A stretch of 64,000 bases of DNA from an uncultured Peptostreptococcaceae bacterium. Lineage in GTDB: Bacteria > Bacillota > Clostridia > Peptostreptococcales > BM714. Within the stretch, counting starts at the first letter, position 1. Each line of letters opens with the position of its first letter. Shown here piece after piece: positions 8,396 through 34,661 of the stretch. The notes beneath the pieces are model-generated. The model did not search any database. It saw only the letters and a list, made by a program, of their open reading frames with translations, and was not told the origin of the DNA. The stretch lies in the NCBI GenBank assembly GCA_964617505.1, contig CAZTZB010000006.1, positions 2,551 through 66,550 of the forward strand. The letters run 5' to 3'. The position numbers and the translations under genes were made by a program.

Positions 8396-9717
8396 ACCGT
8401 TCTTTGTATGTTGCCGAATTTAGTATACTTGCCTAGCCATGCCAAATTTACTGTTCCTGTAGGACCGTTCCTCTGCTTGGCTATTATGACCTCTCCTATG
8501 TTTTTCTTTTCAGAATCTTCATGGTAATATTCGTCTCTATAGAGGAACATAACTACATCGGCATCCTGCTCTATTGCCCCTGAATCTCTAAGATCGGAAA
8601 GTATCGGTCTATGGTCGCTTCTTTGTTCAGGAGCCCTCGAAAGCTGTGAAAGTGCGATTATCGGGCATTCAAGTTCTCTAGCCAATCCTTTTAGACCCCT
8701 CGAAATTGCCGAAATCTCCTGCTGCCTGCTCTCGCTCCTTGAATCGGATGACATCAGCTGTAGATAATCTATCAATACCAGGTCCAAACCCGACTCCATT
8801 TTAAGCCTTCTTGCTTTAGCCTTTATCTCCATAACCGTAATTCCAGGAGTATCGTCTATGTAGATTTTGGCTTTTCCAAGTGGAACAGTTGCTCCAGCCA
8901 CTTTTATCCATTCTTCTTCCGTCAATTTTCCAGTTCTTATTTTCGTAATCTCAACATGAGCTTGTGTACTTAGCATTCTTTGAACCAATTGTTCCTTTGA
9001 CATCTCCAAACTGAAGAGGGCTACTGATCTGTCATTTTTTATTGCAATACTTTGCGCAATATTTATGCCAAGGGCTGTCTTTCCCATCGAAGGCCTTGCA
9101 GCTATCAGAACCAAGTCGGATTTCTGCAAGCCAGAAGTCATTTTGTCAATATCGTGAAAACCCGTAGGAAGTCCTGTATAGCCACTTTCAGAGCCGGCAA
9201 GGAGCTCCATGTAATCTAGAGTATCCTGAAGCACATCCTTTACTATGGCAAAAGCCTGCGTGCTTTTCTTCTGAGATATTTCAAAAATCCGTCTTTCCGC
9301 TTCGTCCATAAGCATCTTGACGTCTGCTGATGAATACCCTTTGTCAACAATGACTTTCCCAGCATCTATGAGCTGTCTCAGTATCGCTTTTTCCTCTATT
9401 ATGTCGGCATAATACCTTGCATTCGCAGTAATTGGGACTGCATTTGAAAGATCGGTCAGATATGAAATGCCTCCAGCTTCTTCAAGAATTCCCACTTTTT
9501 TAAGCTCTTCGGAAACGGTGACAAGATCAACGGGTTCACTCCTCCCATACAAATCAAGCATCGCTCTAAAGATTTCCTTGTGATTTTCCTTGTAAAAATG
9601 TTCATCTTTTAGTTTTTCTGTTACTGATATAACAGCTTCACGGTCCAGCAGCATTGCGCCCAGAACCGATTGTTCGGCATCTATGTTGTGTGGAGGAATC
9701 CTTCCCAAATAATCCAT
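8392..9717 (-). CDS. dnaB: Replicative DNA helicase
   Basis: The N-terminus PPHNIDAEQSVLGAML, Walker A (ARPSMGKTA), LIDYLQLM and AKQRNGPTG are all DnaB-family hallmarks. Confidence 0.95.
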   Translation of the reverse strand: MDYLGRIPPHNIDAEQSVLGAMLLDREAVISVTEKLKDEHFYKENHKEIFRAMLDLYGRSEPVDLVTVSEELKKVGILEEAGGISYLTDLSNAVPITANARYYADIIEEKAILRQLIDAGKVIVDKGYSSADVKMLMDEAERRIFEISQKKSTQAFAIVKDVLQDTLDYMELLAGSESGYTGLPTGFHDIDKMTSGLQKSDLVLIAARPSMGKTALGINIAQSIAIKNDRSVALFSLEMSKEQLVQRMLSTQAHVEITKIRTGKLTEEEWIKVAGATVPLGKAKIYIDDTPGITVMEIKAKARRLKMESGLDLVLIDYLQLMSSDSRSESRQQEISAISRGLKGLARELECPIIALSQLSRAPEQRSDHRPILSDLRDSGAIEQDADVVMFLYRDEYYHEDSEKKNIGEVIIAKQRNGPTGTVNLAWLGKYTKFGNIQRTV

Positions 9718-18835: not shown

Positions 18836-19111
18836 TTACTCTCTCCATGAAATCTCTTTAGGCTTAAAGTACTTTCCGTCTCCCATGTTGTATATCCTTA
18901 TCAATTCCCTGTCAATATCCATTATGCGCAATTCCTTTATTATCAAAGAAAGTTTTTCGCCGGATGTTTTTATTGAAAGGCCACAGCTTGCGGTAATGCT
19001 GCGGGGTGTAGGTATCATTTCAATCTCAATTATCCCCTTAAGCCTTCTCTCCACCTTTATTGCCAAATGAGTAGAATCAAATGCTATCGCAATGAATCCT
19101 CCTTCTGTCAT
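18836..19111 (-). CDS. DUF3343-domain small protein (putative Se/S carrier-like)
   Basis: It is 91 aa and its start overlaps the yedF-like gene stop by 4 nt. It is the usual partner of YedF-type genes. Confidence 0.55.
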   Translation of the reverse strand: MTEGGFIAIAFDSTHLAIKVERRLKGIIEIEMIPTPRSITASCGLSIKTSGEKLSLIIKELRIMDIDRELIRIYNMGDGKYFKPKEISWRE

Positions 19112-19701
19112 ATCCTTATAACCTTGGGTGCTTCATTTATTTTTTCAACTATATCGTACATATTGCTGACAATACCTATTCCTATATTTGCTTTTTCATT
19201 AAAATAGTCCAAACATGTTCCGCAAACCAGCATTTCAACACCTTTCGCTTGTAAAACTTTCAAGTCCTTAAGTACAGTCGATTCTTTAAGAGCAAGTCTA
19301 ATTCCACCGTTTAAGAAAAGCACTGCTTTGGGAAATGGCGCTGCTTCTGTAAGTGCATAGAAGTATCCCTTCATTAAAATCTCTCCCAATTCATCGGATC
19401 CGCTTCCCATCTTGTCAGATTCAATTAATAGCACCCAGTCTCCTGTTTCATCTTTTAATAAAGATGTTTTCTGTTTTTCATCAGTTTCTCCGTTTTTCCC
19501 AATTAGCTCAAGATAGATTCCATCTTCTCTTTTTTCTTCTGAAAATGAATATCCCTTTTTATCAGCCAAACGGCTTATATTTTTGCTCGCAATATCATTG
19601 TCTACAAGCACCAGTATCTCTGTTATTCCTTCTTCCATTATTTTTTTGGTTTCTATAACTGGTGCCGGACATGCCAATCCTCTTACATCAACTTTTTTCA
19701 T
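19108..19701 (-). CDS. yedF: YedF-type sulfurtransferase-like selenium metabolism protein
   Basis: The N-terminus is TusA-like (VDVRGLACPAPVIETKK), and a DsrE-like C-terminal half contains a CGTC motif. Confidence 0.7.
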   Translation of the reverse strand: MKKVDVRGLACPAPVIETKKIMEEGITEILVLVDNDIASKNISRLADKKGYSFSEEKREDGIYLELIGKNGETDEKQKTSLLKDETGDWVLLIESDKMGSGSDELGEILMKGYFYALTEAAPFPKAVLFLNGGIRLALKESTVLKDLKVLQAKGVEMLVCGTCLDYFNEKANIGIGIVSNMYDIVEKINEAPKVIRI

Positions 19702-19721
19702 ATTTTACCCCTCTTTTAAGT

Positions 19722-20597
19722 TTATGGAACAATTATTTTAATCGACAGTGGCAACAGATTGACTTCGACAGGACATTCTCCTATTATGTCCCCATCCGCA
19801 TTCAAAAGCACATTGTCACTTGATTTTACTAAAATTCTCTTTGCTCTAAATACCTTGACCTCTTCTCTGTCTACATGTTTTCCGCTAAAAACCATCGGAA
19901 ACAGTTTTAAAAATTTGATTCTTTTCAAAGCCTTGACTATGCATATTTGAAAATCTCCGCTGTCTACGGAGGCTCCTGGGGTTATTTTCATCCCCCCCCC
20001 GTAATACTTTCCATTTCCAAAGGCAACGAGCATGACTTTTCCGTTGAAAACGCCATCATCAGACTCCAAATGAATTTCCACAGGCCTATAGGTCATTAGC
20101 ATCTTTATGGTAGCAGCTACATATGCAAATGTCCCCGGCAGATACTTTTTTATTTTTTGTGTTTCCCGGGTAATCAAGGCGTCAATTCCGAAACTAAAAA
20201 CATTAATGAAGTAGCTGTCGTTTGCCTTTCCCAAATCCGTCCATTTCTCCTTGCCGCGATGAATCACATCCATTTGCTTTTTAAAATTCGTCGGAATGCA
20301 TATGGTTCTCGAAAAATCATTACCCGTACCGCAAGGAATGATTCCTACCGAAACTGATTCCCCATATACCCCATTTACGACCTCAAAAAGAGTTCCATCG
20401 CCACCCACCGAAATTATATGTGTAAAGCCCTCTCTACATGCCTTTCTCGAGAGAATTTCGCCGTGTCCCGGGTACTCGGTTTCAACTATTTTGTATTCAA
20501 TCTCATGTTTTTTTTCATAATCTTCAATTCTATCTCTATACTTCCTTCCCCGTCCTTTTCCAGCCGTAGGATTCAGCACAAAGCAATATTTGTCCAT
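19722..20597 (-). CDS. Diacylglycerol/lipid kinase family protein (YegS/BmrU-like)
   Basis: Motifs include NPTAGKG and GGDGT. I moved the start to the ATG at 20597 after a GAGGAG RBS; the track start is 20612. Confidence 0.8.
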   Translation of the reverse strand: MDKYCFVLNPTAGKGRGRKYRDRIEDYEKKHEIEYKIVETEYPGHGEILSRKACREGFTHIISVGGDGTLFEVVNGVYGESVSVGIIPCGTGNDFSRTICIPTNFKKQMDVIHRGKEKWTDLGKANDSYFINVFSFGIDALITRETQKIKKYLPGTFAYVAATIKMLMTYRPVEIHLESDDGVFNGKVMLVAFGNGKYYGGGMKITPGASVDSGDFQICIVKALKRIKFLKLFPMVFSGKHVDREEVKVFRAKRILVKSSDNVLLNADGDIIGECPVEVNLLPLSIKIIVP

Positions 20598-20680
20598 ATA
20601 ACAGCTCCTCATAAATGTCTCATTCTATTATATATTATGTGTTCCCTTTTTTCTAACAAGTATTTTAGAATTACCCAAGC

Positions 20681-20715
20681 AAAAAGAGCCTCGATGTGAA
20701 GAGGCTCTTTTTGTT
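20681..20715 (-). terminator. Rho-independent terminator closing the Mrp-like operon
   Basis: Minus strand reads AGAGCCTC-TTCACATC-GAGGCTCT followed by TTTTT. It lies 12 nt after the last stop codon. Confidence 0.8.
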
Positions 20716-20727
20716 TCACTTTCTATA

Positions 20728-22779
20728 TCAAGTTTTAAGGATCAAGTAGCTCAATATGCCTATCAATATTATCGCAAATATGAACAATGCATATATGATA
20801 CTATTCATGCGTCCCTGTGTTCGTGAAAAAATTTGTCCCACACTTTCTATCTCTTTCGCATAATTTTCTTTCACCTTGCCAGCCGCCGTTTTCTCTCCAA
20901 CGCTCGTCACAATGTCCTTCAATTCAATTCCTTTTCTGTCTTTCGAGACATCTTTTCCTTTGGAATCCTTTCTTTTAAAGCGCCCAACATCAATCCTTAT
21001 ATCCCCAATTCTATGAAATAATCCCTCAATGTAAATAAAGAAATTTGCAAATCCCCTGTCTACGTATTTAAATAGATGGTAGCCTCCCAAGTAAAAAGTC
21101 TTGGCCAGAGGCTTGTAAAAATCCTGCTCCAAATCCGGCCATTCGAGTGTCGGGTTCCTGTAGATTGGTCCGTCCTCCGTCTGCATAATGAGCCCTTTCC
21201 TGACTATCAAAAAGTATAGTGCCACGCCAAGCGCGAAAATTATCCCAGTGTTGTAAAAAACTTCGGATGTATAAAGATTGATGGGCACATGGCCCCTTCC
21301 TCCAAGAAACACTTCCGTTTCTTCCATTATTGAAAACATATATCCCGGTCTAATCCCCAGATAGATTGCAATTCCTGATAATGCAAATAGGGGAAAAAGC
21401 GCTCTTTTATGTATTTGGTTCTTAAACTGCCCCCAATACTTTTCGCTTTCCTCTACAAATACAGCCACGAAGATTTTTAGGAGATAAACAAGAGTAAAGC
21501 TACTGCTTATAATGAATATAATTTCCGCAACTCCCATGCCGACGCCTTCATAGATGTGCCCGGCCTCCACAAGCGCTTCATGTAGAAGATTCTTGCTAAT
21601 GAATCCACTTGAACCCGGAACTCCTGCAACGGACAAAACGCCTACAAGAAATACTGCCTTGAGTTTGTACAAATGTTTTCCAAATCCATGTATATGATTG
21701 ATTGAAAGTTCATGGAGAAGCATATATATTATGCCGGCGCCAAGGAAAAGCAAAACCTTAAAAATCGCATGGTTTACTATATGAAATAGGGTTCCATGGA
21801 TAGCTATGTTGTTGTTTGAACCAAGAATCCCTATGAGGCCCACCCCCATAAGAATATATCCAAGCTGGCTCATTGAACTATAGGCCAAAATCCGTTTGAG
21901 GTTTCTTTGAAATATAGCCAATAAGCCTCCCCAAAACATGTTTGCCAATCCCAATACGAATATCACCCTTGAAATTTCAATATCACCACCAAAAATTACA
22001 ATCGATGTAATCATTATTCCAAATATCCCTGTTTTTGCGAGTATCCCGGCCAAAACCGCCGTAGCCGGTGCCGGTGCCGCCGAATACGCCTTAGGAAGCC
22101 ATACATGAAGAGGCATCATACACGCCTTTACCCCAAAGCCTGTTATAATGAGAGCCGCAATCCCATATTTAACCGAACCCATATTGACAGCTTTGCTCTG
22201 AAGCTCAGAAATTCTAAGTGTTCCTGTATAGTCGTAGAGAAGGAAAAGTCCCATCAAGAGTATCATTCCTCCGGCTATTGCCATCGTCAAATAGGTCCTT
22301 CCGGCATCCCTGGTATATTCATCCTCATCGTGTATGATTAGAAAATATGAGGTTATTGACATGATTTCAAAATATGTGAATAGGTTCAGCATATGGTCTG
22401 AAAGAAAAATTCCCATTGTGCTGGCATATGTCAAAATGAAAAAAGCGTAATATCTATTTCTTTTTTTATATTTGATCAAGTATTGCGACGAATATATTGT
22501 CGTAAGAAACCATACCAGCGAAGTAATAGATACAAATATGTACCTAAAGGCATCCAACTTCAAAAATAGGCCCGTCCCCATAATATCGGGAATCTCAATC
22601 TCCAAGCCCTTTCCTCCTATATAAGGATATAGCAAACAAACAATAAGAAAAACTCCCCCGGTCATAATATCATTTATTATGTCCCTAAGCTTTTCACTTT
22701 TCCTTCCAATCAAAAAACCCACTGCTGCTCCAAGAAATGGAATCAACAAGATAGCTATAAGCAAGGTATTCTCTATCAT
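20728..22779 (-). CDS. NuoL/MrpA-N-like antiporter subunit with C-terminal extension, paralogue A (downstream copy)
   Basis: The core is Proton_antipo_M type (WLPKAY..AP, SSMSQLGY, HAIFKVLLF). It is followed by a charged linker of about 190 aa and a final TM helix. It is highly similar to 22873..24939 over its full length. Confidence 0.85.
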   Translation of the reverse strand: MIENTLLIAILLIPFLGAAVGFLIGRKSEKLRDIINDIMTGGVFLIVCLLYPYIGGKGLEIEIPDIMGTGLFLKLDAFRYIFVSITSLVWFLTTIYSSQYLIKYKKRNRYYAFFILTYASTMGIFLSDHMLNLFTYFEIMSITSYFLIIHDEDEYTRDAGRTYLTMAIAGGMILLMGLFLLYDYTGTLRISELQSKAVNMGSVKYGIAALIITGFGVKACMMPLHVWLPKAYSAAPAPATAVLAGILAKTGIFGIMITSIVIFGGDIEISRVIFVLGLANMFWGGLLAIFQRNLKRILAYSSMSQLGYILMGVGLIGILGSNNNIAIHGTLFHIVNHAIFKVLLFLGAGIIYMLLHELSINHIHGFGKHLYKLKAVFLVGVLSVAGVPGSSGFISKNLLHEALVEAGHIYEGVGMGVAEIIFIISSSFTLVYLLKIFVAVFVEESEKYWGQFKNQIHKRALFPLFALSGIAIYLGIRPGYMFSIMEETEVFLGGRGHVPINLYTSEVFYNTGIIFALGVALYFLIVRKGLIMQTEDGPIYRNPTLEWPDLEQDFYKPLAKTFYLGGYHLFKYVDRGFANFFIYIEGLFHRIGDIRIDVGRFKRKDSKGKDVSKDRKGIELKDIVTSVGEKTAAGKVKENYAKEIESVGQIFSRTQGRMNSIIYALFIFAIILIGILSYLILKT

Positions 22780-22860
22780 TTAAATCCTCCGATTCCCGTT
22801 AACAAAACTTCTTACGACATCTTGCACAAAATATAAAATAACATTCGGAAAAAAACCTAT
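22780..22860 (-). pseudogene. Remnant of the 3' end of the upstream mrpD-like gene (duplication junction footprint)
   Basis: The spacer between the paralogues aligns with 24940..25019. The first 15 nt are identical and a later stretch of about 50 nt is about 85% identical. It translates to FFPNVILYFVQDVVRSF, compared with the genuine C-terminus LFPNVVLHFVQDIARSLI. Confidence 0.65.
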
Positions 22861-22872
22861 TAACTTGCTATC

Positions 22873-24939
22873 TTAAGTTTTAAGAATCAGATAGCTCAAT
22901 ATGCCTATCAATATTATCGCAAATATGAACAATGCATATATGATGCTGTTCATGCGTCCCTGTGATCTGGAAAAAAATTGTCCCACACTCTCTACCTCTA
23001 CAGTGTATTTCTCCTTGATCTTTGAAATTGCAGTTTCTCCTTCAACACCGCCCACAAGGTCCCTCAATTTTATGGCGTCATTTTTCATTTCAGCAGCCTT
23101 TTCTCTACGATTGCCTATGATGGAGTCCTTTCTTTCGAATCTTTTTATGTTGATTTTTAAATTTACAATTTTATGGAAAAATAATCCGATGCCCGAAAAG
23201 AAATTTACCAATCCCCTATCTACATGTTTGAACAAGTAGTATCCTCCCCAATAAAAGGCTGCAAAAAGAGGTTTGTATAAATGCTGTTCCAAATTCGTCC
23301 AAGCTAGTGTAGGATTTTTAAATATCGGTCCTGTTTCCGTTTGTACAAGCAACCATTTTCTGACTATTATAGAGTAAATTCCAACACCAAGCGCAAATAT
23401 AATTCCAGTATTGTAGAAAACTTCCTCTGTATACATGTTAAGAGGAACATGTCCATGCCCTGAAAACATTACCTCAGCTTGGCTTATTACATCAAAAACA
23501 TACCCTGGTCTTAATCCTGTATATATTACAATTCCTGAAAGCATCATTAGTGGAAACAAGGCCCTTTTTCGTATATGCCCCTTGAACTGGCCCCAATACT
23601 TTTCGCTTTTCTCAACAAATACAGCTATGAAAATTTTCATGAGATATGCAACAGTAAAGCTGCTGCTTATAATGAAAATCCATTCAGCTGCTTTCATGCC
23701 AAAGCCTCCATAAATATGCTCCGCTTCTATCAGTGCTTCGTGCAACAGATTTTTACTTATGAATCCGCTAAAGCCCGGCATACCTATTATGGCCATAAAG
23801 CCTATTATAAACATTGCTTTCAAAAATTTCTTATTGCTTCCGAATCCACGGATATAGTTGATTGAAAGCTCATGAAGAACCATATATATTATGCCTGCGC
23901 TAAAAAAAAGCAAGACTTTAAAAATAGCATGATTGAATATATGGAAAAGGGTTCCGTGTATTGCTATGTTGTTATGCTCTCCAAGCATACCGATAAGTCC
24001 CACTCCCATAAGAATATAACCTATTTGGCTCATAGAGCTGTAGGCCAGAATTCGTTTAATGTTCCTTTGGAAAATAGCCAAAAACCCGCCCCAAAACATA
24101 TTCAACAGGCCTAAAATAAAGATGACCTTGCATAGAATAAGATCGTTTTTCATTATCACCAATACCGTCAGCATTATTCCGAAAACGCCTGTTTTCAAGA
24201 GTATCCCGGAAAGAATGGCACTTGCCGGAGCAGGCGCTGCCGGATGTGCCTTGGGAAGCCATACGTGAAGCGGTATAACCCCGGCTTTTACTCCAAATCC
24301 AATAATCATCAGCCATGCTATAATATATTTTATCTGCCCTAGCGACGCAACTTCATTCGCAAGATCGTTAATGCTTAGTGTTCCTGTATAATCAAAAAGA
24401 AGAAACAGGCCCATAAGGAGCACCATCCCTCCGGCTATTGACATCGTCAGATAAGTTTTCCCAGCGTCACGGGTATACTCATCTTCATCGTGTATTATCA
24501 GGAAATATGATGTTATTGACATGATTTCAAAAAACGTGAACAGGTTAAGCATATTGTCCGATATAAAAATACCCATGGTACTGGCATATGTCAAAATGAA
24601 AAAGGCATAATATCTATTCCTTTTTTTATATTTGATTAAATATTGTGTGGAATACATTGTAGCCAAAAACCATACCAGCGCTGTTATGAATACAAATATA
24701 TACCTAAACGCATCCAACCTGAGAAAAAGGCCTATACCCATGATGTCCGGTATCTCTATTGCTATACCTTCTCCCCCTATATATGGGTATAACAATATAA
24801 CAACAAGAAAAATTGCTCCCGTCATAATAACATTGAATATATCCCTGGATTTTTCATTTTTCCTTCCTATCCAAAACCCCACTGCAGCTCCAACAAATGG
24901 AATCAACAAGGTAGAGATAAGCAAAGCATTCTCCATCAT
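22873..24939 (-). CDS. NuoL/MrpA-N-like antiporter subunit with C-terminal extension, paralogue B (upstream copy)
   Basis: The architecture matches 20728..22779. The last 28 aa (GRMNSIIYALFIFAIILIGILSYLILKT) are identical in both copies. Confidence 0.85.
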   Translation of the reverse strand: MMENALLISTLLIPFVGAAVGFWIGRKNEKSRDIFNVIMTGAIFLVVILLYPYIGGEGIAIEIPDIMGIGLFLRLDAFRYIFVFITALVWFLATMYSTQYLIKYKKRNRYYAFFILTYASTMGIFISDNMLNLFTFFEIMSITSYFLIIHDEDEYTRDAGKTYLTMSIAGGMVLLMGLFLLFDYTGTLSINDLANEVASLGQIKYIIAWLMIIGFGVKAGVIPLHVWLPKAHPAAPAPASAILSGILLKTGVFGIMLTVLVIMKNDLILCKVIFILGLLNMFWGGFLAIFQRNIKRILAYSSMSQIGYILMGVGLIGMLGEHNNIAIHGTLFHIFNHAIFKVLLFFSAGIIYMVLHELSINYIRGFGSNKKFLKAMFIIGFMAIIGMPGFSGFISKNLLHEALIEAEHIYGGFGMKAAEWIFIISSSFTVAYLMKIFIAVFVEKSEKYWGQFKGHIRKRALFPLMMLSGIVIYTGLRPGYVFDVISQAEVMFSGHGHVPLNMYTEEVFYNTGIIFALGVGIYSIIVRKWLLVQTETGPIFKNPTLAWTNLEQHLYKPLFAAFYWGGYYLFKHVDRGLVNFFSGIGLFFHKIVNLKINIKRFERKDSIIGNRREKAAEMKNDAIKLRDLVGGVEGETAISKIKEKYTVEVESVGQFFSRSQGRMNSIIYALFIFAIILIGILSYLILKT

Positions 24940-24958
24940 ATAAATCCTCCGATTCTTG

Positions 24959-26401
24959 TCAGATTAAGCTTCTTGCGATATCTTGCACGAAATGCAAAAC
25001 AACATTCGGAAAGAGTCCTAGTGCAACAGTAATACCCGTGAGCACCACAATCGGTATGAGCATCATGAGCGGCGGTTCCTTGTTCTCAATCTCCCTATCC
25101 ATTTCTCCGGGAAAAAATGCGGCAACTACAATCGGAAGTAGATATCCAGCCGTCAAAAGCGCGCTAAGCAGAAGTATCACAACAAAAATTGCCCTGTTTT
25201 CTTGAAGCCCTCCCATTGCTAAATACCATTTGCTAACAAATCCATTTGTGGGAGGCAAGCCGATAAGAGATATCGACGCAATCGAAAAACACCCCATAGT
25301 AATGGGCATTTTCTTTCCTATGCCTCTTATTTCACCTATCGTCTTATATCCTGTCCTATACATTATTACACCGACACAAAAAAACAATGTTATTTTTATG
25401 ACTGCATGGTTTATCAAATGAAGCAAGGCGCCAGTCAAGGCATCCTCATTCAGGAGTATTATTCCAATCATTATGTATCCAAGCTGGCTAATTGTCGAAT
25501 AAGCCAAACGCTTCTTGAGATTGTCTTGATGCAAAGCAACAAATGACCCCATAAGGATTGTCAACACGATTGGTATGCTCATGTATCCCTTGATATGCAT
25601 AGCTTTAACGGCCTCTGCTCCGAAGAGATAAAAGCTTATCCTTATCAATGCGAAAATACCTGATTTTACGACTGCAACCGCGTGAAGCAAAGAGCTTACT
25701 GGCGTAGGAGCAACCATTGCTGCAGGTAGCCAGGAATGGAATGGAACCATTGCCGCCTTTACCGAAAATCCAAGAAACAAAATGACATATGCCGCCGTCA
25801 CTCGTTTTCCAACTTCAATCCCGCCTAAAACTCCACCTGGAACAAATTCCAAAGTTCCTGTAATGCTAAATAAAAGAATCATACCCAAAAGAACTAGCGT
25901 AGCTCCGCTAAAGGAATATATGAGGTATTTCTTACCGCTTGCAAGGGCTTCTTTAGTTCCGGTATGTATGACCAATGGGAAGGTAGAAAGAGTCAAGAAT
26001 TCGTAGAAAATATAGAATGTAAAGATATTTCCAGCTAAAGAAATACCAACAATTACACCTAGTGTAACAAGAAAATATGTAAAGAATTTATTTTCCTTGC
26101 CTTCATGATGCATATAATCAAATGAATAGGCCGTTGTACAGATCCATAGAAATGAAGTCATTGTAAGAAAAAGCCTGCTCATTCCATCTATCTTGAAACA
26201 TATTTCCATAAATCCATTGATTTTAAAAAGATGCATTGCCGGCGGCGCCGCAATAAGGACCGCCATGGCAAACAAGAAATTCAGGAAAACGCCCCCTAGA
26301 AGATAGACCCTCCTATACGATTCATTTTTAAATTCGATAAAATGAATTCCTCCGGCCAAGGCCATAGGAAACACAATCGGGACCAATGCTAAGAAATTCA
26401 T
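24959..26401 (-). CDS. mrpD: MrpD/NuoN-like antiporter subunit (second copy)
   Basis: Proton_antipo_M motifs are present (HSWLPAAMVAPTPVS, STISQLGY, NHAVIK). I moved the start to the ATG at 26401 after an AAGGGAG RBS; the track uses the TTG at 26419. Confidence 0.85.
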   Translation of the reverse strand: MNFLALVPIVFPMALAGGIHFIEFKNESYRRVYLLGGVFLNFLFAMAVLIAAPPAMHLFKINGFMEICFKIDGMSRLFLTMTSFLWICTTAYSFDYMHHEGKENKFFTYFLVTLGVIVGISLAGNIFTFYIFYEFLTLSTFPLVIHTGTKEALASGKKYLIYSFSGATLVLLGMILLFSITGTLEFVPGGVLGGIEVGKRVTAAYVILFLGFSVKAAMVPFHSWLPAAMVAPTPVSSLLHAVAVVKSGIFALIRISFYLFGAEAVKAMHIKGYMSIPIVLTILMGSFVALHQDNLKKRLAYSTISQLGYIMIGIILLNEDALTGALLHLINHAVIKITLFFCVGVIMYRTGYKTIGEIRGIGKKMPITMGCFSIASISLIGLPPTNGFVSKWYLAMGGLQENRAIFVVILLLSALLTAGYLLPIVVAAFFPGEMDREIENKEPPLMMLIPIVVLTGITVALGLFPNVVLHFVQDIARSLI

Positions 26402-26422
26402 CCAGTCCACTCCCTTCAATCT

Positions 26423-27904
26423 CTATTTAAGGGCGGGAATGCCCGCTTCTATTAGACTAAGAAGTCCTCCACCCGACAATCCTAAGTAAATGACACCAAG
26501 AATTAGCACAAATATCGGCAACAATTCTTTAAATGGGCGCTCTTTGTTCTTGTATACCTTGCCCTCAAGGCTTTCCTCGCCAAAATATCCGTTTATTATG
26601 ACCGGGAAATAATATAGTGCATTGAGCAAGCTACTAATCAGGACGACCGCAAGCAATTCAACCCTATGGGCTTCAATTACAGCAACCGCAAAATTCCATT
26701 TGCTGTTAAATCCCGACAATAAGGGAATTCCAACAAGCGACATGCCTCCGATTGTAAAGATTGCCATAGTAAACGGCATTTCTTTTCCTATCCCTTTTAA
26801 ATCTGCAATATTCTTCTTCCCCGTTTTTTCGATTATGCTTCCGGCAGAAAGAAAAAGGGCCGCCTTAGTAAAGGCGTGGTTGAAAATCTGGAATATAGCG
26901 GCAGCAAGACCCATGCTTGTTCCAAGTCCTATGCCGAAAAATACATAGCCAATCTGAGCAACACTTGAATATGCAACCATCCTTTTTAAATTCTTCTGCA
27001 TTATGGCCAGCACCGATCCTGCTATCATTCCCACTGCTCCCAAAAGAAGCACAATGTTCAAAACAGGCAACTCACTGACAATTCCCATTCCGAAAACCCT
27101 ATAAATTATTTTTATATACAATATTACATAAGCCTTTAGAACCAAAGCGGAAAGCAGCGCGCTTGACACCGCAGGCGCATAGGTATGAGCATCCGGAAGC
27201 CATGTGTGAAGAGGAAACATAGCGCTTTTAACCCCAAGCCCCACTGTGAAAAGTCCTATCGCAATCAGCATATTTCTGCTGTGTTCCGGATAAATGGCCG
27301 CTAAAACTTCATGGCTGCTCGCCATGTTCAGGTGTCCCGTCAATGAGTAAATAAGAGCTATTCCCATTAGTACAAGACCCGAACCTAATGAACTCAATAT
27401 CAGATATTTTAGCGCTGCCTTTATGTTTTCCTTTTTGTCTTTTATTACTACAATTCCGCATGAAGCAATTGAGCTGATTTCGATGAACACAAAACAATTG
27501 AAAAGATCGTCTGAAAAAACGATCCCAAGTAGGGCTCCTACAAGTAGATTAACAAGGGTGTAGAATAATGGCACCTTCTTTTTAGTCAAATCATGATCTA
27601 TGCTATAGATTGAAAACCAAAGAACAGCCATTGTAACAGTCATAAATAGAACAGCCATCAATCCCTCTATTATTCCTATATGGAATTCGATTCCCCATGG
27701 AGCAGCAAAATGACCCACTCTGAAATAGTATGGTCCATCCACCTTTACTCCTAAAAGTGTCCATACTGAAAGCGCAAGGGAAACTCCTGCAGCCGAAATG
27801 CCTATGATTCGAGCCATTCGAATTGTCTTGAAAAGCGGTATTGCAAAAGCTGAAATAAATAAAATCAAGATGATGATTAGCGGATAGCTATTGTAAAGTG
27901 GCAA
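26423..27904 (-). CDS. mrpD: MrpD/NuoM-like antiporter subunit (first copy)
   Basis: Proton_antipo_M motifs are present (HTWLPDAHTYAPAVSS, SSVAQIGY, NHAFTKA). It has a TTG start after a GGGAGGGG RBS. Confidence 0.85.
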   Translation of the reverse strand: MPLYNSYPLIIILILFISAFAIPLFKTIRMARIIGISAAGVSLALSVWTLLGVKVDGPYYFRVGHFAAPWGIEFHIGIIEGLMAVLFMTVTMAVLWFSIYSIDHDLTKKKVPLFYTLVNLLVGALLGIVFSDDLFNCFVFIEISSIASCGIVVIKDKKENIKAALKYLILSSLGSGLVLMGIALIYSLTGHLNMASSHEVLAAIYPEHSRNMLIAIGLFTVGLGVKSAMFPLHTWLPDAHTYAPAVSSALLSALVLKAYVILYIKIIYRVFGMGIVSELPVLNIVLLLGAVGMIAGSVLAIMQKNLKRMVAYSSVAQIGYVFFGIGLGTSMGLAAAIFQIFNHAFTKAALFLSAGSIIEKTGKKNIADLKGIGKEMPFTMAIFTIGGMSLVGIPLLSGFNSKWNFAVAVIEAHRVELLAVVLISSLLNALYYFPVIINGYFGEESLEGKVYKNKERPFKELLPIFVLILGVIYLGLSGGGLLSLIEAGIPALK

Positions 27905-27905
27905 T

Positions 27906-28265
27906 TTATTCCCCTCCCATCTTCATGATTTCGTTTAGGTCGATTGTCCCGTACTTTTCGTAAATGCGGATTGTAAGTGCCAAAGCAAAAGCCGTGATGC
28001 TTACTGCAACAACAATTCCCGTAAGCATTAGCGCCGTGGGAATCGGATTGACGTAACCTGAAGCCGATTTGGCAGACCGTATTATTGGCGCTTCATTTCC
28101 TGTAATATATCCCTTGGCTATAAAAAATAGAAAAACTGCCGTATCCATGATATTCATGCCTATTATTTTTTTAATCAGATTTCCATGAGCCAAAAGTGTT
28201 ACAAAGCCAACTCCAAACAAAATGATGGCTCCGGTTTCATAGTAATTTGTCAGCAAGTGTCCCAT
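27906..28265 (-). CDS. mrpC: MrpC/MnhC (NuoK-like) subunit
   Basis: It has three TM helices and a NuoK-like sequence (LIKKIIGMNIMDTAVFLFFIA). The ATG at 28265 lies 1 nt after the upstream stop. Confidence 0.8.
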   Translation of the reverse strand: MGHLLTNYYETGAIILFGVGFVTLLAHGNLIKKIIGMNIMDTAVFLFFIAKGYITGNEAPIIRSAKSASGYVNPIPTALMLTGIVVAVSITAFALALTIRIYEKYGTIDLNEIMKMGGE

Positions 28266-28266
28266 A

Positions 28267-28710
28267 TCAGATAGTCCCTTCGTAGAATAGTTTAAAAAAT
28301 ACATACATAGTTATCGCTACGATGATTCCAACAGCTATGTTTAGAGGCAGTATGAGCCCTCCGCTAAACAATTTTCCTGGCGTTCCGAGTGGAATATCCC
28401 AGACTTCCCAATGCATTCCGCCAGTCAAAAAACTATATCCCTTGAGCGCTCCGTAAATAAGGAGCGACGAGCACATCCATTTCATCATCCTTTCATATGT
28501 AAGCCTCGAAATAAGGTTGTCCCATCCGAAAATCAATCTATGAAGAATCATGCTTACTCCAAGAATCGTTCCTCCTGCAAACCCTCCACCTGGAGAAAGG
28601 TGCCCGTTAAATATTACGTATATGGCAAATACTTGTATAAAAGGTATAATAAGCCTTCCTACTTCTGTCAGAATATCGCTTTTTTCGGCTTCCCTTTGGA
28701 ATTTATTCAT
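28267..28710 (-). CDS. mrpB: MrpB/MnhB-domain subunit (MbhF-like)
   Basis: The GHLSPGGGFAGG motif is typical of the MnhB domain. I chose the start at 28710 (GGAGGG-N6-ATG), but 28716 is also possible. Confidence 0.75.
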   Translation of the reverse strand: MNKFQREAEKSDILTEVGRLIIPFIQVFAIYVIFNGHLSPGGGFAGGTILGVSMILHRLIFGWDNLISRLTYERMMKWMCSSLLIYGALKGYSFLTGGMHWEVWDIPLGTPGKLFSGGLILPLNIAVGIIVAITMYVFFKLFYEGTI

Positions 28711-28981
28711 CTTCATCCCTCCTGAGCACCACAATTACCGTTATTAGTGCTGTAAAAAGAACCGTCGCCTCTCCAAAGGTATCAAATGCCCTATAGTCCA
28801 AAATTATTCCGGCTACTACATTGACTGCGCCGGTCTCTTCCACGCCTTTTTCAAGGTACCTATATGATACCTCGTTATTTGAAGGATTTTCAGCCTGCCC
28901 AAAGGTAGGCAAATCAGCAACCCCGAATAGCAAAATAATAATTAATGCTGTTGCCAAAACAACAGAGAATATTTTTCTCAT
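28703..28981 (-). CDS. Small Mrp/Mbh subunit, MbhE-like (MnhB N-terminal-type segment)
   Basis: AVNVVAGIILDYRAFDTFGEATVLF is a signature shared with the MrpA C-terminus, MrpB and MbhE. It is coupled to both neighbours: its start overlaps the upstream stop by 4 nt (ATGA) and its stop overlaps the downstream start. Confidence 0.65.
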   Translation of the reverse strand: MRKIFSVVLATALIIILLFGVADLPTFGQAENPSNNEVSYRYLEKGVEETGAVNVVAGIILDYRAFDTFGEATVLFTALITVIVVLRRDEDE

Positions 28982-29217
28982 TTCCCGCCACCTCCGACTC
29001 TCCTGAGCGTAAAGACAAACAAAAGGGTTGTTATCCCCGCTCCTACAGCCGCTTCGGTGATTGCGAGATCCGGCGCATTAAGTTGCTGCCAAAGAACTGC
29101 CATCGTCAAGCTATATACCATGAATACTATGATAGCACCCAACAAATTGCGTATTACAGATACGGCAATCGATGCTCCTATTAAAAATACTATGACAATC
29201 ATTGAAAAAGTGGTCAT
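28978..29217 (-). CDS. Small Mrp/Mbh subunit, MbhD/DUF4040-like
   Basis: LNAPDLAITEAAVGAGITTLLF is a motif typical of the DUF4040 / MrpA C-terminal region. Confidence 0.6.
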   Translation of the reverse strand: MTTFSMIVIVFLIGASIAVSVIRNLLGAIIVFMVYSLTMAVLWQQLNAPDLAITEAAVGAGITTLLFVFTLRRVGGGGK

Positions 29218-29519
29218 CTGCCCTCTTCCTTTCGATGGCGATTGTAATACGCCTTGGCAATTAAATGCGTTGCGGTGGGATTAGTTATCCATAAAAATAT
29301 TATTATAAGAAGCAGCTTAAGGCTCGCATAACTTTCTCCATTGAAAATAATCGTTGCCAATAGAATAAGTACCGCGCCCAGCGTATCGCACTTTGCTGCG
29401 CTGTGTGCGCGTGTATACATGTCCGGGAGTCTCAAAATACCAATAGTTCCCACTGTGAAAAAGAAAAGTCCGCCACTTATCAGAATGATCATTATTATTT
29501 CTTTAATCAATTTGGGCAC
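29214..29519 (-). CDS. mrpG: MrpG/MnhG subunit
   Basis: GILRLPDMYTRAHSAAKCDTLG is the MnhG signature. The exact start is uncertain: GTG at 29519, TTG at 29510 or ATG at 29492. Confidence 0.8.
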   Translation of the reverse strand: MPKLIKEIIMIILISGGLFFFTVGTIGILRLPDMYTRAHSAAKCDTLGAVLILLATIIFNGESYASLKLLLIIIFLWITNPTATHLIAKAYYNRHRKEEGR

Positions 29520-29775
29520 CCCTTCCTTCTATGAAGTTGGCTATAGCCATGGACGCCACAAAGCTGATAAGCGCATATACCAATGCCACATCAAGGAAAT
29601 AGCTTTCCTTGAGAATGCATGAGACAACTGCTATTATAACGGTCGTTTTTGTCCCTATTACATTTATCGCTATTAGCCTGTCCTCTGGAGTCGGCCCTTT
29701 TACTGCTCTGACTGTGCAAAGGGTCACTGTGATCGTAAGATATATTATTGAAGCAATAAATATTTTAATCATCAT
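29503..29775 (-). CDS. mrpF: MrpF/MnhF subunit
   Basis: RAVKGPTPEDRLIAINVIGTK is the MnhF signature. I moved the start to ATGATG at 29775 after a GGTGGAGG RBS; the track start of 29877 lies inside mrpE. Confidence 0.8.
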   Translation of the reverse strand: MMIKIFIASIIYLTITVTLCTVRAVKGPTPEDRLIAINVIGTKTTVIIAVVSCILKESYFLDVALVYALISFVASMAIANFIEGRGAQID

Positions 29776-30265
29776 CGGCTTTTTCCTCCACCTTAAGTAG
29801 TAATTCTTCGAACTTTGAATGAGCAACACCCTCCACATATTCATCCATAAGACAATGGACAATAAGTCTTTTCCCATCCATATTTACGGTCAAGGTTCCT
29901 GGAGTCAGGGTTATTGAATTGGCCAATATCATTCTACTTAGCGGTTTTTCGAGACGAGTGTCAAAGCTTATTATGCTAGGGGTTATCAAGAGTTTTTTTG
30001 ATAAAACAATTTTTGCAACATGAAAATTGGCAAAAACAATTTCTTTGCATAGCAAAAGCAGATACTTAAGCAAATAAAATAATTTTTTCTTGTTTTTGAA
30101 TGAATACCCGAAATTGATTTCAAGTATGTCCACATTTATAAAAAATACAAGAAAACATATGGCAATTCCCGTCAAAACCATTTGCATATCTATGCTTTCT
30201 GTAAGAATAAGCCAAAAAACAATCATCAATATCAAATAGAATTTATTGGATTTATTCTTTTTCAT
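29765..30265 (-). CDS. mrpE: MrpE/MnhE subunit
   Basis: It has two N-terminal TM helices and a C-terminal domain with ANSITLTPGTLTV, the MnhE signature. I moved the start to the ATG at 30265 after a GGGAGGT RBS. The track start of 30319 would place the sigma-54 promoter inside the coding sequence. Confidence 0.75.
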   Translation of the reverse strand: MKKNKSNKFYLILMIVFWLILTESIDMQMVLTGIAICFLVFFINVDILEINFGYSFKNKKKLFYLLKYLLLLCKEIVFANFHVAKIVLSKKLLITPSIISFDTRLEKPLSRMILANSITLTPGTLTVNMDGKRLIVHCLMDEYVEGVAHSKFEELLLKVEEKADDD

Positions 30266-30303
30266 AGACCTTACCTCCCAAAAATTACACCTTATATGTA
30301 CAC

Positions 30304-30318
30304 GCAAATTCCGTGCCA
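30304..30318 (-). promoter_or_regulatory. Sigma-54 (-24/-12) promoter of the Mrp/Mbh-like operon
   Basis: Minus strand reads TGGCACGGAATTTGC, which is TGGCAC-N5-TTGC with consensus GG/GC spacing. It lies 39 nt upstream of the mrpE ATG. Confidence 0.8.
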
Positions 30319-30395
30319 ATTACTGCCCTTTTACAAATCTTTTTCAAACCCCTTCAATTGCAAGCTGTTCGCACCTTTTAAAAGTAAAAAAAATG

Positions 30396-30435
30396 GCAAA
30401 TCAAACCCGTCAAAATATGAAGTGTTCTGATTTGC
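30396..30435. promoter_or_regulatory. 8-bp perfect inverted repeat: candidate enhancer (UAS) for the sigma-54 activator, or a weak terminator of the activator gene
   Basis: The sequence is GCAAATCA-N24-TGATTTGC, centred about 100 bp upstream of the -24 element. On the minus strand it is followed by a T8 run. Confidence 0.4.
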
Positions 30436-30472
30436 TACATTTATTCGGCATATACCAATATGTGATGTTCTA

Positions 30473-32488
30473 TTATAACACATATGTCCCGTTACGAGTC
30501 ATATGTATTTCGTATTCCTTCATCTTTCTATAAAGAGAACTTCTGCTTATTCCTAATATTCGTGAAGTCTTTGAAAGATTTCCTTGGGTTTCCTCGATAG
30601 TTTTACTGATTGCCATGCTTTCAATTTCACGGAGAGTGAAGAATTTCTTGTTTTGGGAATTAGGCTCATCCAAAAGATTCGTCGATTTCATGTATTGTGG
30701 AATATCTTCCACCGACAAGACTTCTCCTTCTTTTACAACACTTATTATCTGTTGCATTACATTTTGAAGCTCTCTAACATTTCCAGGCCATGGATATCCG
30801 CTCATCCTCTCATAGAAGGCATCCTCTATTCCTCTTATATCCTTCCCCATTTGCCCGCTGAATTTTTCCATAAAATAAGATATGAGAGGCTTGAAGTCTT
30901 TTTTTCTTTCCCTTAGGGCTGGAATCAATATAGGCATTACATTCAATCTGTAAAAAAGATCTTCTCTGAAATTACCTTTCTCCACTTCCCCCTTTAAATC
31001 CTTGTGCGTTGCAGCTATAACACGAACATCTACCGGAATCACATCATGACCTCCAACTCGAACAACTTCCTGTGTTTCAAGTACCCTCAGAAGATTGGCC
31101 TGGGTATCTAAGGGCATATCGCCTATTTCATCAAGAAAGATTGTTCCCCCGTCAGCTAATTCAAATTTTCCTGGATGACCCCCGCGTTTTGCCCCTGTGA
31201 ATGCTCCCTCAATATATCCAAACAACTCGCTGGCAACCAAATCTCGCGGTATAGCTCCACAATTAAGGAAAATAAAGGGTTGTTTTCTTCTTGGACCGGC
31301 ATTATGAATAGACTGTGCAAAAAGCTCCTTGCCTGTTCCGCTTTCTCCCTGCAAGAGCACAGTAGTATTGTATTGGGTCATTCCTTCGGCCGTTTTAATC
31401 GCTTTTTTTATCTCTTCACTTTCTCCCATTATATCTTTAAACGTAAAACGAGCCTGTGATCCGACAATCCTGTTTACAAGATTGTGCACCGTTTTGACTT
31501 CGTGGAATGTTAATATGACGCCTTCAAGAATATCTCTGTCGATATCCTTTATGGACGCTATGGTGGCTATGCAAACAACGCGTTTGCCGTTTTTAAGTAT
31601 GAATTCCAATTCCTCATTATTATAGTGCCCCTCTGCAATGTTTTTTCCTATGCTTTTCAAGCGGTCACCAATTTTTACCATTTGCCTAATATCTTTTCCT
31701 ACAATTTCTTTTTCTGTCCTTTTAAGAATATGCCGAGCAATAAGATTGACATCTGTAATGACGCCTTCATTGTCAATACAGATCAATCCTTCATTAATTT
31801 GCTCGATTATTGTTGAAAAATGATGGTTGGCAATCCTAAGCTGCCTATTTATCTTGTCAATTTTAAACTGCTTTTCAATAGCGACACTCGACGCCACAAC
31901 CATACCAAGTGTATGAAGATGCACCTTTTCGTAGGAGTCGGTCATGCTTAGTATTCCAAGCAATTCACCTTCCGCGTTTTTTATCGGACATGCCGAAGAG
32001 GTAAATTTATGGTACCTTTTGGCATAATGCTCGGCTGCAAACACCTGTATTGGCTTCCTCGTATCCAATGCTATTCCAATGGCATTGGTCCCAATAGTCT
32101 CTTCTTTCACATTATAGCCCTTATAAAGATTCAACTTTTTATATGCCTCAACCGAATCCTCATCTCCAAGACATTCCACAACGTATCCTTCCGGATCCGT
32201 AAGCCTGACCAAGAGGCCATGACTGCCCGCAATATTGTAGAGACTTTCCATAAATGGCTTGGCAATCCTAAGAAGTGGACGAAGCTGAAGCTCCCTGTCC
32301 TTAAGGGTTTTCGATTTTGAGTTTTCTTCTCCTTCCCCCATGGGATTGACCTGTTCTTTACGACTTCTGATCCAAGAATCGGCTATTTCTTTCCGTATTA
32401 TGTCATGATTTATGTCTCCACTTTCCATGAATTTTCGCCAAGCATCCTGGATTTGATTATTCCTATCATAAATCTTATTTACTGGCAT
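30473..32488 (-). CDS. Sigma-54-dependent transcriptional activator (bEBP) with AcoR-like N-terminal sensory region and PAS domain
   Basis: The AAA+ sigma-54 interaction domain has GESGTGKE (Walker A), the GAFTGA loop, FLDEIGDM and RVIAAT. The C-terminus is a Fis-type HTH (GNLSKTSRILGISRSSLYRKMKEY). Confidence 0.9.
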   Translation of the reverse strand: MPVNKIYDRNNQIQDAWRKFMESGDINHDIIRKEIADSWIRSRKEQVNPMGEGEENSKSKTLKDRELQLRPLLRIAKPFMESLYNIAGSHGLLVRLTDPEGYVVECLGDEDSVEAYKKLNLYKGYNVKEETIGTNAIGIALDTRKPIQVFAAEHYAKRYHKFTSSACPIKNAEGELLGILSMTDSYEKVHLHTLGMVVASSVAIEKQFKIDKINRQLRIANHHFSTIIEQINEGLICIDNEGVITDVNLIARHILKRTEKEIVGKDIRQMVKIGDRLKSIGKNIAEGHYNNEELEFILKNGKRVVCIATIASIKDIDRDILEGVILTFHEVKTVHNLVNRIVGSQARFTFKDIMGESEEIKKAIKTAEGMTQYNTTVLLQGESGTGKELFAQSIHNAGPRRKQPFIFLNCGAIPRDLVASELFGYIEGAFTGAKRGGHPGKFELADGGTIFLDEIGDMPLDTQANLLRVLETQEVVRVGGHDVIPVDVRVIAATHKDLKGEVEKGNFREDLFYRLNVMPILIPALRERKKDFKPLISYFMEKFSGQMGKDIRGIEDAFYERMSGYPWPGNVRELQNVMQQIISVVKEGEVLSVEDIPQYMKSTNLLDEPNSQNKKFFTLREIESMAISKTIEETQGNLSKTSRILGISRSSLYRKMKEYEIHMTRNGTYVL

Positions 32489-32531: not shown

Positions 32532-32687
32532 TTAAGCTTCTTTATTTTTACTTATATATATATCCATCGCCTTTATTCCCCTATGAGCCAACTTCACAAA
32601 TAAAACAAAAGAATAAATCCAAAATACAATAAAAAATAGAAACAATACAATGTTAAATATCCCAAACCCAAGTCTAAACCCCAACAT
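32532..32687 (-). CDS. Unlisted small ORF: 51-aa single-TM peptide
   Basis: My translation is MLGFRLGFGIFNIVLFLFFIVFWIYSFVLFVKLAHRGIKAMDIYISKNKEA. An AGGAGG RBS lies 8 nt upstream of the ATG at 32687. It falls below the 60-aa cut-off of the ORF track. Confidence 0.4.
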   Translation of the reverse strand: MLGFRLGFGIFNIVLFLFFIVFWIYSFVLFVKLAHRGIKAMDIYISKNKEA

Positions 32688-32716: not shown

Positions 32717-32732
32717 TGTTTCACGTGAAACA
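32717..32732. other. parS: parS centromere-like site (perfect consensus)
   Basis: TGTTTCACGTGAAACA is a 16-bp perfect palindrome identical to the Firmicutes parS consensus. It lies 1 nt downstream of the spo0J stop. Confidence 0.9.
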
Positions 32733-34612: not shown

Positions 34613-34648
34613 TAAAAAAAAACAAAACCACATGCTTTGTAGTTTTGT
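34613..34648 (-). terminator. Rho-independent terminator after the noc-like gene
   Basis: Minus strand reads ACAAAACTACA-AAGCA-TGTGGTTTTGT followed by T9. The 5' arm overlaps the parS site by 3 nt. Confidence 0.75.
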
Positions 34649-34661
34649 TTCACGTGAAACA
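34646..34661. other. parS: parS centromere-like site (perfect consensus)
   Basis: TGTTTCACGTGAAACA lies between the noc-like stop and the soj promoter region. Confidence 0.9.

Follow-up and report, generated by a model that had tools for sequence, protein, structure and literature searches.

A sigma-54 promoter and an adjoining enhancer-binding protein gene as the probable switch of an Mrp-type antiporter operon in Clostridia

The DNA considered here, 64,000 nucleotides (nt) of contig CAZTZB010000006.1 from an uncultured Peptostreptococcaceae bacterium, is referred to below, at its whole length, as the window, and coordinates are window positions unless a locus is named. On its minus strand an operon for an Mrp-type antiporter complex lies directly downstream of a gene for an enhancer-binding protein (EBP), and in the gap between the two is a -24/-12 element of the sigma-54 type. 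We consider it highly probable that this is a functional mrp operon dependent on sigma-54 and on that EBP. An earlier note on this DNA, made from its letters, had proposed control of mrp by the promoter and its adjacent activator, and the proposal is now supported by comparison of loci. All 28 EBP-linked loci, which represent 23 distinct sequence contexts, have TGGCAY-N5-TTGC at the equivalent position; none of about 80 MrpE loci without the EBP has it. Along with it the 28 carry phased candidate enhancer sites of the form TGT-N11-ACA, of which the about 80 have none. In short, promoter and EBP come and go together. The regulatory features, in the order in which the minus strand is read, are:

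30473..32488, minus strand: EBP of 671 amino acids (aa), MimR_N/GAF-PAS-AAA+-HTH_8, from Pfam domains and motifs in the translation
30466..30482, minus strand: candidate distal enhancer, upstream activating sequence (UAS) 1, TGTGTTATAATAGAACA, TGT-N11-ACA, overlapping the EBP stop codon and starting 164 nt upstream of the -24
30423..30439, minus strand: candidate proximal enhancer, UAS2, TGTAGCAAATCAGAACA, TGT-N11-ACA, starting 121 nt upstream of the -24 and 43 nt from UAS1
30386..30446, minus strand: terminator-like hairpin and U8 tract after the EBP gene, RNA fold -14.9 kcal/mol, z = -2.9, then UUUUUUUU
30318..30304, minus strand: -24/-12 element TGGCACGGAATTTGC, a 10/10 match to TGGCAC-N5-TTGC, with a predicted transcription start near 30292

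Promoter, activator and their joint occurrence

The element is where the earlier note had placed it and reads as it had said, with its GG (30317-30316) and GC (30305-30304) exactly 10 nt apart, the canonical spacing. It is in the 207-nt gap from the EBP stop codon to the mrpE ATG, in the correct orientation and 38 nt (39 by the previous count) before that ATG, 30265, which has its own ribosome-binding site (RBS). The EBP gene upstream is the only EBP gene in the window, and promoter calling gave nothing sigma-70-like on the minus strand of the gap, 30266-30472. An open reading frame (ORF) with a TTG start at 30319 (184 aa) contains the promoter motif; it was suspected of being an artefact and was discarded as such, the closest homologues being 166 aa long and aligned from the ATG.

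How improbable is the motif by itself? Only mildly, and the context must carry the argument for sigma-54. There is one exact TGGCAC-N5-TTGC in the 64 kb, both strands counted; when the window was shuffled 100 times and both strands scored, 0.12 exact matches were expected per window and 11 of the 100 shuffles had at least one. Relaxation to TGGCAY-N5-TTGC adds a single match in the window, TGGCATAAATATTGC at 9056-9070 (minus strand), which was rejected as a promoter: despite being a perfect match to the Clostridial sigma-54 consensus it falls within an ORF for a DnaB-like helicase (8392-9717), in the codons for ...ALGINIAQ..., and it is most likely a chance intragenic by-product of coding.

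The context was examined from both sides. In a forward test an MrpE profile yielded, among the matches listed, 80 MrpE loci, one genome per species and a broad sample across many phyla, and a script sought in each an EBP AAA+ core anywhere in the locus and a -24/-12 element in the 600 nt that precede mrpE. Only L001-L005, the five closest loci and all of them from Clostridia, carry the EBP immediately upstream, with 68-93% identity in the core, and it is exactly these five that have TGGCAY-N5-TTGC before mrpE; among the other 75 none has a match of at least 9/10 to the element. Four close named species without the EBP, Clostridium tetani, C. lundense, Alkaliphilus transvaalensis and Sedimentibacter acidaminivorans, were added individually to the MrpE sample, and in them the same type of operon has AT-rich upstream regions with no sigma-54 motif and no UAS. 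In the reciprocal test metagenome contigs were scanned with the EBP sensor domain alone (residues 1-345), so as to avoid generic EBPs, and 23 loci were found. Three of the contigs end just past the EBP gene; all 20 loci with enough DNA have mrpE downstream, in the same gene order, and TGGCAY-N5-TTGC between, with sensor identity down to 33%. The same arrangement of EBP, promoter and mrp is present in a metagenome-assembled genome (MAG), L106, with 92% MrpE identity, and in an isolate with a complete genome, Crassaminicella thermophila (L108). Conservation of the -24/-12 element at orthologous loci and of EBP-mrp synteny, to which the earlier note had looked for a check on its proposal, are thus both borne out. 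A T precedes TGGCA in 20 of the 23 distinct promoter contexts.

EBP and mrp genes are co-oriented in every locus, and what flanks them differs between lineages: parAB-noc in some, unrelated genes in others. L106 is otherwise identical to the window in its synteny, parB-EBP-mrp-DAGK-TusA/DsrE-Se/S carrier. A full-length EBP search provided named hosts (a protein word search with the sensor only gave just 11 mostly truncated proteins). Close orthologues are in Caminicella, Tepidibacter, Crassaminicella, Maledivibacter halophilus, Marinisporobacter, C. ganghwense, C. aestuarii, C. sediminicola and Anaeromicrobium, which we take to be mostly marine, saline or sediment anaerobes, and further orthologues are in Oxobacter, Inediibacterium and C. 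homopropionicum, presumably exceptions in this respect.

The activator itself had been described as complete, and all its parts were found. Pfam gives GAF (72-199), PAS (223-333), Sigma54_activat PF00158 (353-520, 6e-69), AAA_lid_14 and HTH_8 (618-659), and the translation holds both the Walker A GESGTGKE and the GAFTGA loop; the MimR_N label was precomputed on an orthologue 93% identical. On its sequence the EBP can be placed in the AcoR/DhaR/MimR/PrdR-like subfamily. The best full-length NCBIfam match is DhaR (NF008485), with 418.3 bits over residues 24-663 against an equivalog cut-off of 551, and PrdR (NF041552) scores 400.8 bits, aligned only from residue 209, against a cut-off of 795. Because both scores are below the curated cut-offs, the EBP is best regarded as a distinct orthologous group, neither DhaR nor PrdR. 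There are no dha genes near it, and its target is mrp, not prd: in loci with enough downstream DNA, orthologues are always followed by mrp. We propose that it is the dedicated activator of the mrp operon.

What might it sense? The only solved structure that matches the GAF and PAS sensor is the N-terminal part of E. coli DhaR, 4LRX (E = 1e-18). Mean column identity of the sensor among orthologues is 66%, with H154, H160, C167, H190 and H192 among the invariant residues; H160, C167, H190 and H192 are not shared with DhaR in the alignment printed. Characterised EBPs of the AcoR/DhaR/MimR/PrdR-like subfamily respond to organic metabolites or, for DhaR, to partner proteins, and by analogy it is plausible that this one senses a ligand. 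E. coli DhaR works at a sigma-70 promoter, and what controls it is the binding of the DhaK and DhaL proteins, not a free small molecule.

Enhancer sites, proposed mechanism and alternatives

The intergenic regions have a shared layout: palindromes at or just past the EBP stop codon, then a hairpin with a T-run, then the promoter. In 25 non-redundant intergenic regions there are 51 TGT-N11-ACA sites, 8.6 per kb against a background, taken from the same loci overall, of 0.39 per kb, a 22-fold enrichment; in the whole window there are just 15. An EBP-linked locus has one to three. The distance from the start of the proximal site down to the -24 element is 121-135 nt in 24 of the 25 non-redundant loci, and a second site is usually 43-44 bp further upstream, the 43 nt between UAS1 and UAS2 being about four helical turns. 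UAS2 is nearly identical in L001, L083-L087 and L106, and L002 and L004 have TGTTTC-N5-GAAACA three times. For Clostridial EBPs, TGT/ACA with a 10-12-bp spacer is the typical UAS in 15 EBP groups (PMC6615313), and UAS sites 100-250 bp upstream, an EBP gene adjoining its target and the promoter consensus TTGGCATNNNNNTTGCT are described there also.

With a true parS, TGTTTCACGTGAAACA, 250 nt away, the TGT...ACA palindromes were considered as ParB/parS-like sites. That possibility was rejected because the spacing of half-sites is 5 as against 4, because the palindromes are present also in loci far from parAB, and because they are phased to the sigma-54 promoter. The half-sites of parS do resemble those of the UAS, their spacing being 4 nt and 5 nt respectively. 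There are two perfect copies of parS in the window, at 32717-32732, just past parB, and at 34646-34661, between noc and parA.

Taken together these features suggest a course of events. The EBP would bind UAS1 and UAS2 through its Fis-type HTH, 164 and 121 nt upstream of the -24, while sigma-54 RNA polymerase would wait on the element as a closed complex. On receipt of a cue by the GAF-PAS sensor, the AAA+ ring would touch sigma-54 by way of the GAFTGA loop, hydrolyse ATP and open the promoter, and a transcript of about 9.6 kb, with 11 translationally coupled genes, would run from near 30292 to a terminator at 20677-20716. The hairpin past the EBP gene would insulate the operon from read-through, so that without the signal the antiporter may be tightly off. 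DNA binding by the EBP, sigma-54 dependence in vivo, the start of transcription and the nature of the signal are what we infer from the sequence, and the presence of rpoN in the genome is likewise inferred only, from the intact GAFTGA-bearing EBP and the conserved promoter.

Several observations weigh against such sigma-54 control or against parts of it. The candidate UAS sites are assigned by enrichment and position. Co-variation between HTH and UAS is at clade level only and could reflect shared ancestry, so that it was set aside as an independent sign of binding. In the window UAS2 overlaps the 5' arm of the post-EBP hairpin, so that its conservation could be owed in part to the terminator. 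That hairpin, AT-rich and with a large loop (24 nt), may terminate weakly and let some read-through pass. On three related metagenome contigs (L103, L104 and L105) the EBP orthologue is split into several ORFs while UAS, promoter and mrp are intact; the breaks could be assembly frameshifts or could mark decaying regulators. An RpoN box was found neither in the window nor in 1.67 Mb of fetched loci, a result that is uninformative for a single-copy gene.

Could the -24/-12 match be fortuitous, with mrp transcribed by sigma-A, be it from a promoter not recognised as such or by read-through out of the EBP gene? Ten specified bases expected 0.12 times per window and present in 11% of shuffles, a second and clearly chance intragenic match at 9056-9070, and the fact that in C. 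tetani and other species operons of this type do without sigma-54 elements would all allow it. Against these stands the recurrence of the motif at its equivalent position in every EBP-linked locus, in intergenic regions that are otherwise diverged and down to sensor identity of 33%, its absence from the EBP-less loci, the phased UAS sites that accompany it and the failure to call any sigma-70-like site in the gap between EBP and mrpE, and we regard pure chance as extremely improbable. A riboswitch or leader explanation does not apply, since an Rfam scan of the whole window gave no RNA families. More room has to be left for dual control, in which the sigma-54 promoter is real and the EBP boosts rather than gates mrp, with basal expression coming from read-through or a minor sigma-A promoter. 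Mrp antiporters are usually needed continuously for Na+ and pH homeostasis, EBP and mrp genes are always co-oriented, and the window terminator, AT-rich and with its 24-nt loop, is worth just -14.9 kcal/mol. On the other side, a hairpin and T-run are kept between EBP gene and promoter in all inspected loci and are in several of them much stronger, which suggests selection for insulation, and L002-L005 and L108 have clearer hairpins with T-runs at the equivalent position; nor was a sigma-70-like promoter detected in the gap. We hold dual control to be rather doubtful, though a reading to be taken seriously.

Other alternatives leave sigma-54 control of mrp in place and concern what is controlled, or what the EBP senses. 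The complex might be the membrane arm of a larger energy-converting complex, with its input module encoded elsewhere and the EBP sensing a substrate of the pathway. The gene order is that of Mbh/Mbs membrane modules; the three to four antiporter-like subunits are N-, M- and L-like as in complex I; the relatives AcoR, MimR, PrdR and DhaR sense metabolic substrates; and group 3 Mrp modules frequently belong to respiratory complexes (PMC8415708). Yet in about 30 loci no NuoH/MbhM-, NuoB/D- or MbhJKLN-like gene is in or beside the operon, the separate NuoL/MrpA-N-like subunit supplies the module driven by proton-motive force (PMF) that canonical Mrp uses, and the neighbouring genes change from lineage to lineage, so that the operon is accompanied by no constant partner module. 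A membrane arm is, in our estimate, decidedly improbable. It would be a different matter if the EBP were a direct cytoplasmic sensor of cation or pH, its GAF-PAS part responding to Na+ or to alkalinisation and switching on Na+/H+ exchange. That mrp is the sole conserved target of the EBP is consistent with such a role, as is the predominance among the named hosts of what are presumably marine, saline and sediment Clostridia. Na+ sensing has been reported for some GAF domains (Cann 2007, as cited in PMC4751278). Characterised members of the subfamily sense organic metabolites or partner proteins, and direct sensing of cation or pH seems to us unlikely. If it were nevertheless to hold, the EBP would be a Firmicute counterpart of NhaR, and no earlier sigma-54 activator is known to respond to an inorganic monovalent cation.

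The operon and its product

The genes of the operon, all on the minus strand and in the order of transcription, and the hairpin that closes it are:

29765..30265, minus strand: mrpE-like, 166 aa, first operon gene; MNHE PF01899, 2.5e-32; RBS GGGAGG at 30279-30274
29503..29775, minus strand: mrpF-like, about 90 aa; Pfam MrpF_PhaF; start refined against L106
29214..29519, minus strand: mrpG-like, 98-101 aa; Pfam PhaG_MnhG_YufB, 4e-30
28978..29217, minus strand: MbhD-like, 79 aa; Pfam MbhD, 1e-20; NCBIfam DUF4040/MrpA C-terminal positions
28703..28981, minus strand: MbhE-like, 92 aa; Pfam MbhE, 8e-13, and NCBIfam
28267..28710, minus strand: mrpB/MbhF-like, about 147 aa; Pfam MnhB, 2e-24; start refined
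27906..28265, minus strand: mrpC/NuoK-like, about 119 aa; Pfam Oxidored_q2; NCBIfam antiporter subunit C
26423..27904, minus strand: D1, antiporter-like, 493 aa, MrpD/NuoN-like; Proton_antipo_M, 1e-64; NCBIfam MrpD/NuoN
24959..26401, minus strand: D2, antiporter-like, about 480 aa, MrpD/NuoM-like; Proton_antipo_M, 7e-66, and Proton_antipo_N
22873..24939, minus strand: L1, 688 aa, NuoL/HyfB/MrpA-N-like; Proton_antipo_M; NCBIfam HyfB and NDH_I_L over residues 7-590
20728..22779, minus strand: L2, 683 aa, last operon gene, a tandem duplicate of L1, 71% identical at full length
20677-20716, either strand: bidirectional intrinsic terminator hairpin closing the operon; GAGCCTC-N8-GAGGCTC core, 16 pairs, flanked by A/T-runs

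The strong terminator that had been noted at 20681..20715 is there, with slightly wider limits. Reading frames in the operon overlap or abut, and several starts in the ORF track are too long, the refined ones being F 29775, B about 28710, C 28265 and D2 about 26401. Eleven genes, the number given in the earlier note for its Mrp/Mbh-type operon, is correct for the window; the norm in relatives is 10, a total of eleven being specific to this lineage. One L1-type subunit is present in all relatives, and L2, 93 nt from L1, is missing in L106, which is the closest of them, and in L002-L005. The C-terminal end of L1 is a charged stretch and then a final transmembrane helix. An Mrp with four antiporter-like and two putative lateral-helix subunits would be structurally unusual. 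In Crassaminicella thermophila (L108, 17576-21583) a second copy of the long subunit is split into two ORFs, and the gene for D1 is split also.

What kind of complex is it? The modules equivalent to MrpA-G are all there, MNHE, MrpF_PhaF, PhaG_MnhG_YufB, MbhD, MbhE, MnhB, Oxidored_q2 and four Proton_antipo_M, and NCBIfam agrees with Pfam on the identities of the subunits; the MbhD-like gene is the counterpart of part of the MrpA C-terminal/MrpB-type domain. The order is not the canonical seven-gene mrpABCDEFG of groups 1 and 2 but E-F-G-MbhD-MbhE-B-C-D-D-L(-L), and by its gene content and order the operon is best classed with the irregular 'group 3' Mrp type of anaerobes; the main Mrp review describes mrp clusters in anaerobes as atypical. 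Neither the operon nor its flanking DNA has a redox module (MbhJKLMN or NuoB/D/H/I-like), whether in the window or in relatives, and the product would appear to be a stand-alone Mrp-type (CPA3) complex without one. Na+/H+ antiport is its presumed activity.

Comparison with known systems sharpens this. All the functional modules of canonical Mrp/Mnh/Sha/Pha (CPA3; B. subtilis, B. pseudofirmus, A. flavithermus, Dietzia) are here too. Unlike the canonical A-G order, the order here, in Mrp terms, is E-F-G-B'-B''-B-C-D-D-A', with MrpA split into a NuoL-like subunit and MbhD/MbhE-like genes, and an extra MrpD-like subunit brings the antiporter-like subunits to three (four in this genome). The order with E-F-G first and the MbhD/MbhE/MbhF-type splitting of MrpB domains are shared with the stand-alone group 3 Mrp of P. 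furiosus (mrpEFGBB'CD) and with MBH/MBS. However, P. furiosus Mrp is without the MrpA-like PMF module, whereas the operon here has one or two NuoL-like subunits and a second MrpD, and the hydrogenase or sulfane reductase module of MBH and MBS is missing from this operon.

Regulatory relatives, significance and neighbouring loci

The regulatory design has close parallels. In AcoR-acoABCL of B. subtilis and in Clostridial PrdR-prd, AdhR and CrbR, as here, an EBP of GAF-PAS-AAA+(GAFTGA)-HTH_8 build adjoins a single target operon, and the promoter form TTGGCAT-N5-TTGCT with TGT-N10-12-ACA UAS sites 100-250 bp upstream is that of Clostridial EBP systems (PMC6615313). The difference from AcoR/PrdR-type systems is in the target, which is an ion-translocating membrane complex, not a catabolic or fermentation pathway. 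E. coli DhaR (4LRX/4LRY/4LRZ) gives the only structural match to the sensor and the best NCBIfam score, the latter below the 551-bit cut-off, and its dha genes have no counterpart here. A functional analogue is NhaR-nhaA of E. coli, in which a LysR-type activator, demonstrated to be Na+-responsive, is encoded beside a Na+/H+ antiporter gene; a dedicated activator adjoining its target is common to both, and regulator family, sigma factor and transporter family all differ. Sensing of Na+ by the EBP, as in NhaR, would be a hypothesis by analogy.

Has such control of mrp been described? The earlier note knew of no case, and the searchable literature agrees: works that combine sigma-54 or RpoN with Mrp are coincidental co-mentions only. 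Nie et al. 2019 reconstructed the sigma-54 regulons of 57 Clostridiales species with 39 EBP groups (PMC6615313), and in its text and supplement no mrp or other antiporter target is among the 39, probably because the species that bear this locus are outside the genomes analysed there. A D. vulgaris sigma-54 regulome and a 2025 cross-phylum survey of sigma-54 make no mention of a link to mrp, and the main Mrp review describes no promoter, sigma factor, EBP or other transcriptional control. Within that searchable literature the link is apparently undescribed, and both of its parts, a textbook sigma-54/EBP module and a recognisable antiporter, are of familiar kinds.

The sigma-54 operons known from Firmicutes serve, almost without exception, sugars, amino acids and fermentation (PMC6615313). 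A conserved sigma-54/EBP switch on mrp would imply that a costly machine is kept silent and made only on a specific intracellular cue, in a sizeable set of mostly marine or sediment, amino-acid-fermenting Clostridia. The identity of the cue, be it Na+, pH or a metabolite reflecting energy state, would show the role of the complex in strict anaerobes with Na+-based bioenergetics. The locus offers a clean and portable cassette of regulator, UAS and promoter, and with cultured hosts, Crassaminicella thermophila and Clostridium homopropionicum DSM 5847, the question of what turns Mrp on in anaerobes becomes testable.

As judged by synteny with L106, the window lies in the origin-proximal yidC-jag-mnmE-mnmG-rsmG-noc-parA-parB region. 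Between parB and the EBP gene is a small ORF for a hydrophobic protein of 51 aa (32532-32687, minus strand) with its own RBS; it is conserved in L106 and L107, where it was called as a gene of 52 aa, and may be co-transcribed with the EBP gene. Downstream of the operon (18836-20612, minus strand) are genes for a YegS/DAGK-family lipid kinase, a TusA-DsrE fusion and a Se/S-carrier-like protein, in the same order as in L106; in L090 and L091 a DAGK-like gene instead precedes that for the EBP. No link of these genes to mrp regulation is evident.

Two other loci are of interest for mrp in other settings. In a Desulfobacteria MAG (L076, 5107-11040) an unrelated PAS-PAS EBP of 874 aa is followed by TGGCACGTAACTTGA (7987-8001), in which the -12 is GA, not GC, and then by two receiver-domain genes, a Usp gene and mrpE-mnhB; this single locus with its degenerate -12 may be an independent association of sigma-54 with mrp in another phylum. 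In C. tetani and C. lundense (L081/L082, 8333-9842; L109, 1-3672) the EBP-less mrp operon is downstream of genes for an Rrf2-family regulator and cysteine-synthase-like (PALP) proteins. The EBP-less operon of C. tetani and other species seems to be sigma-A-like in its control, and from the Rrf2/PALP neighbourhood one may suspect that the same antiporter is regulated in another way there.

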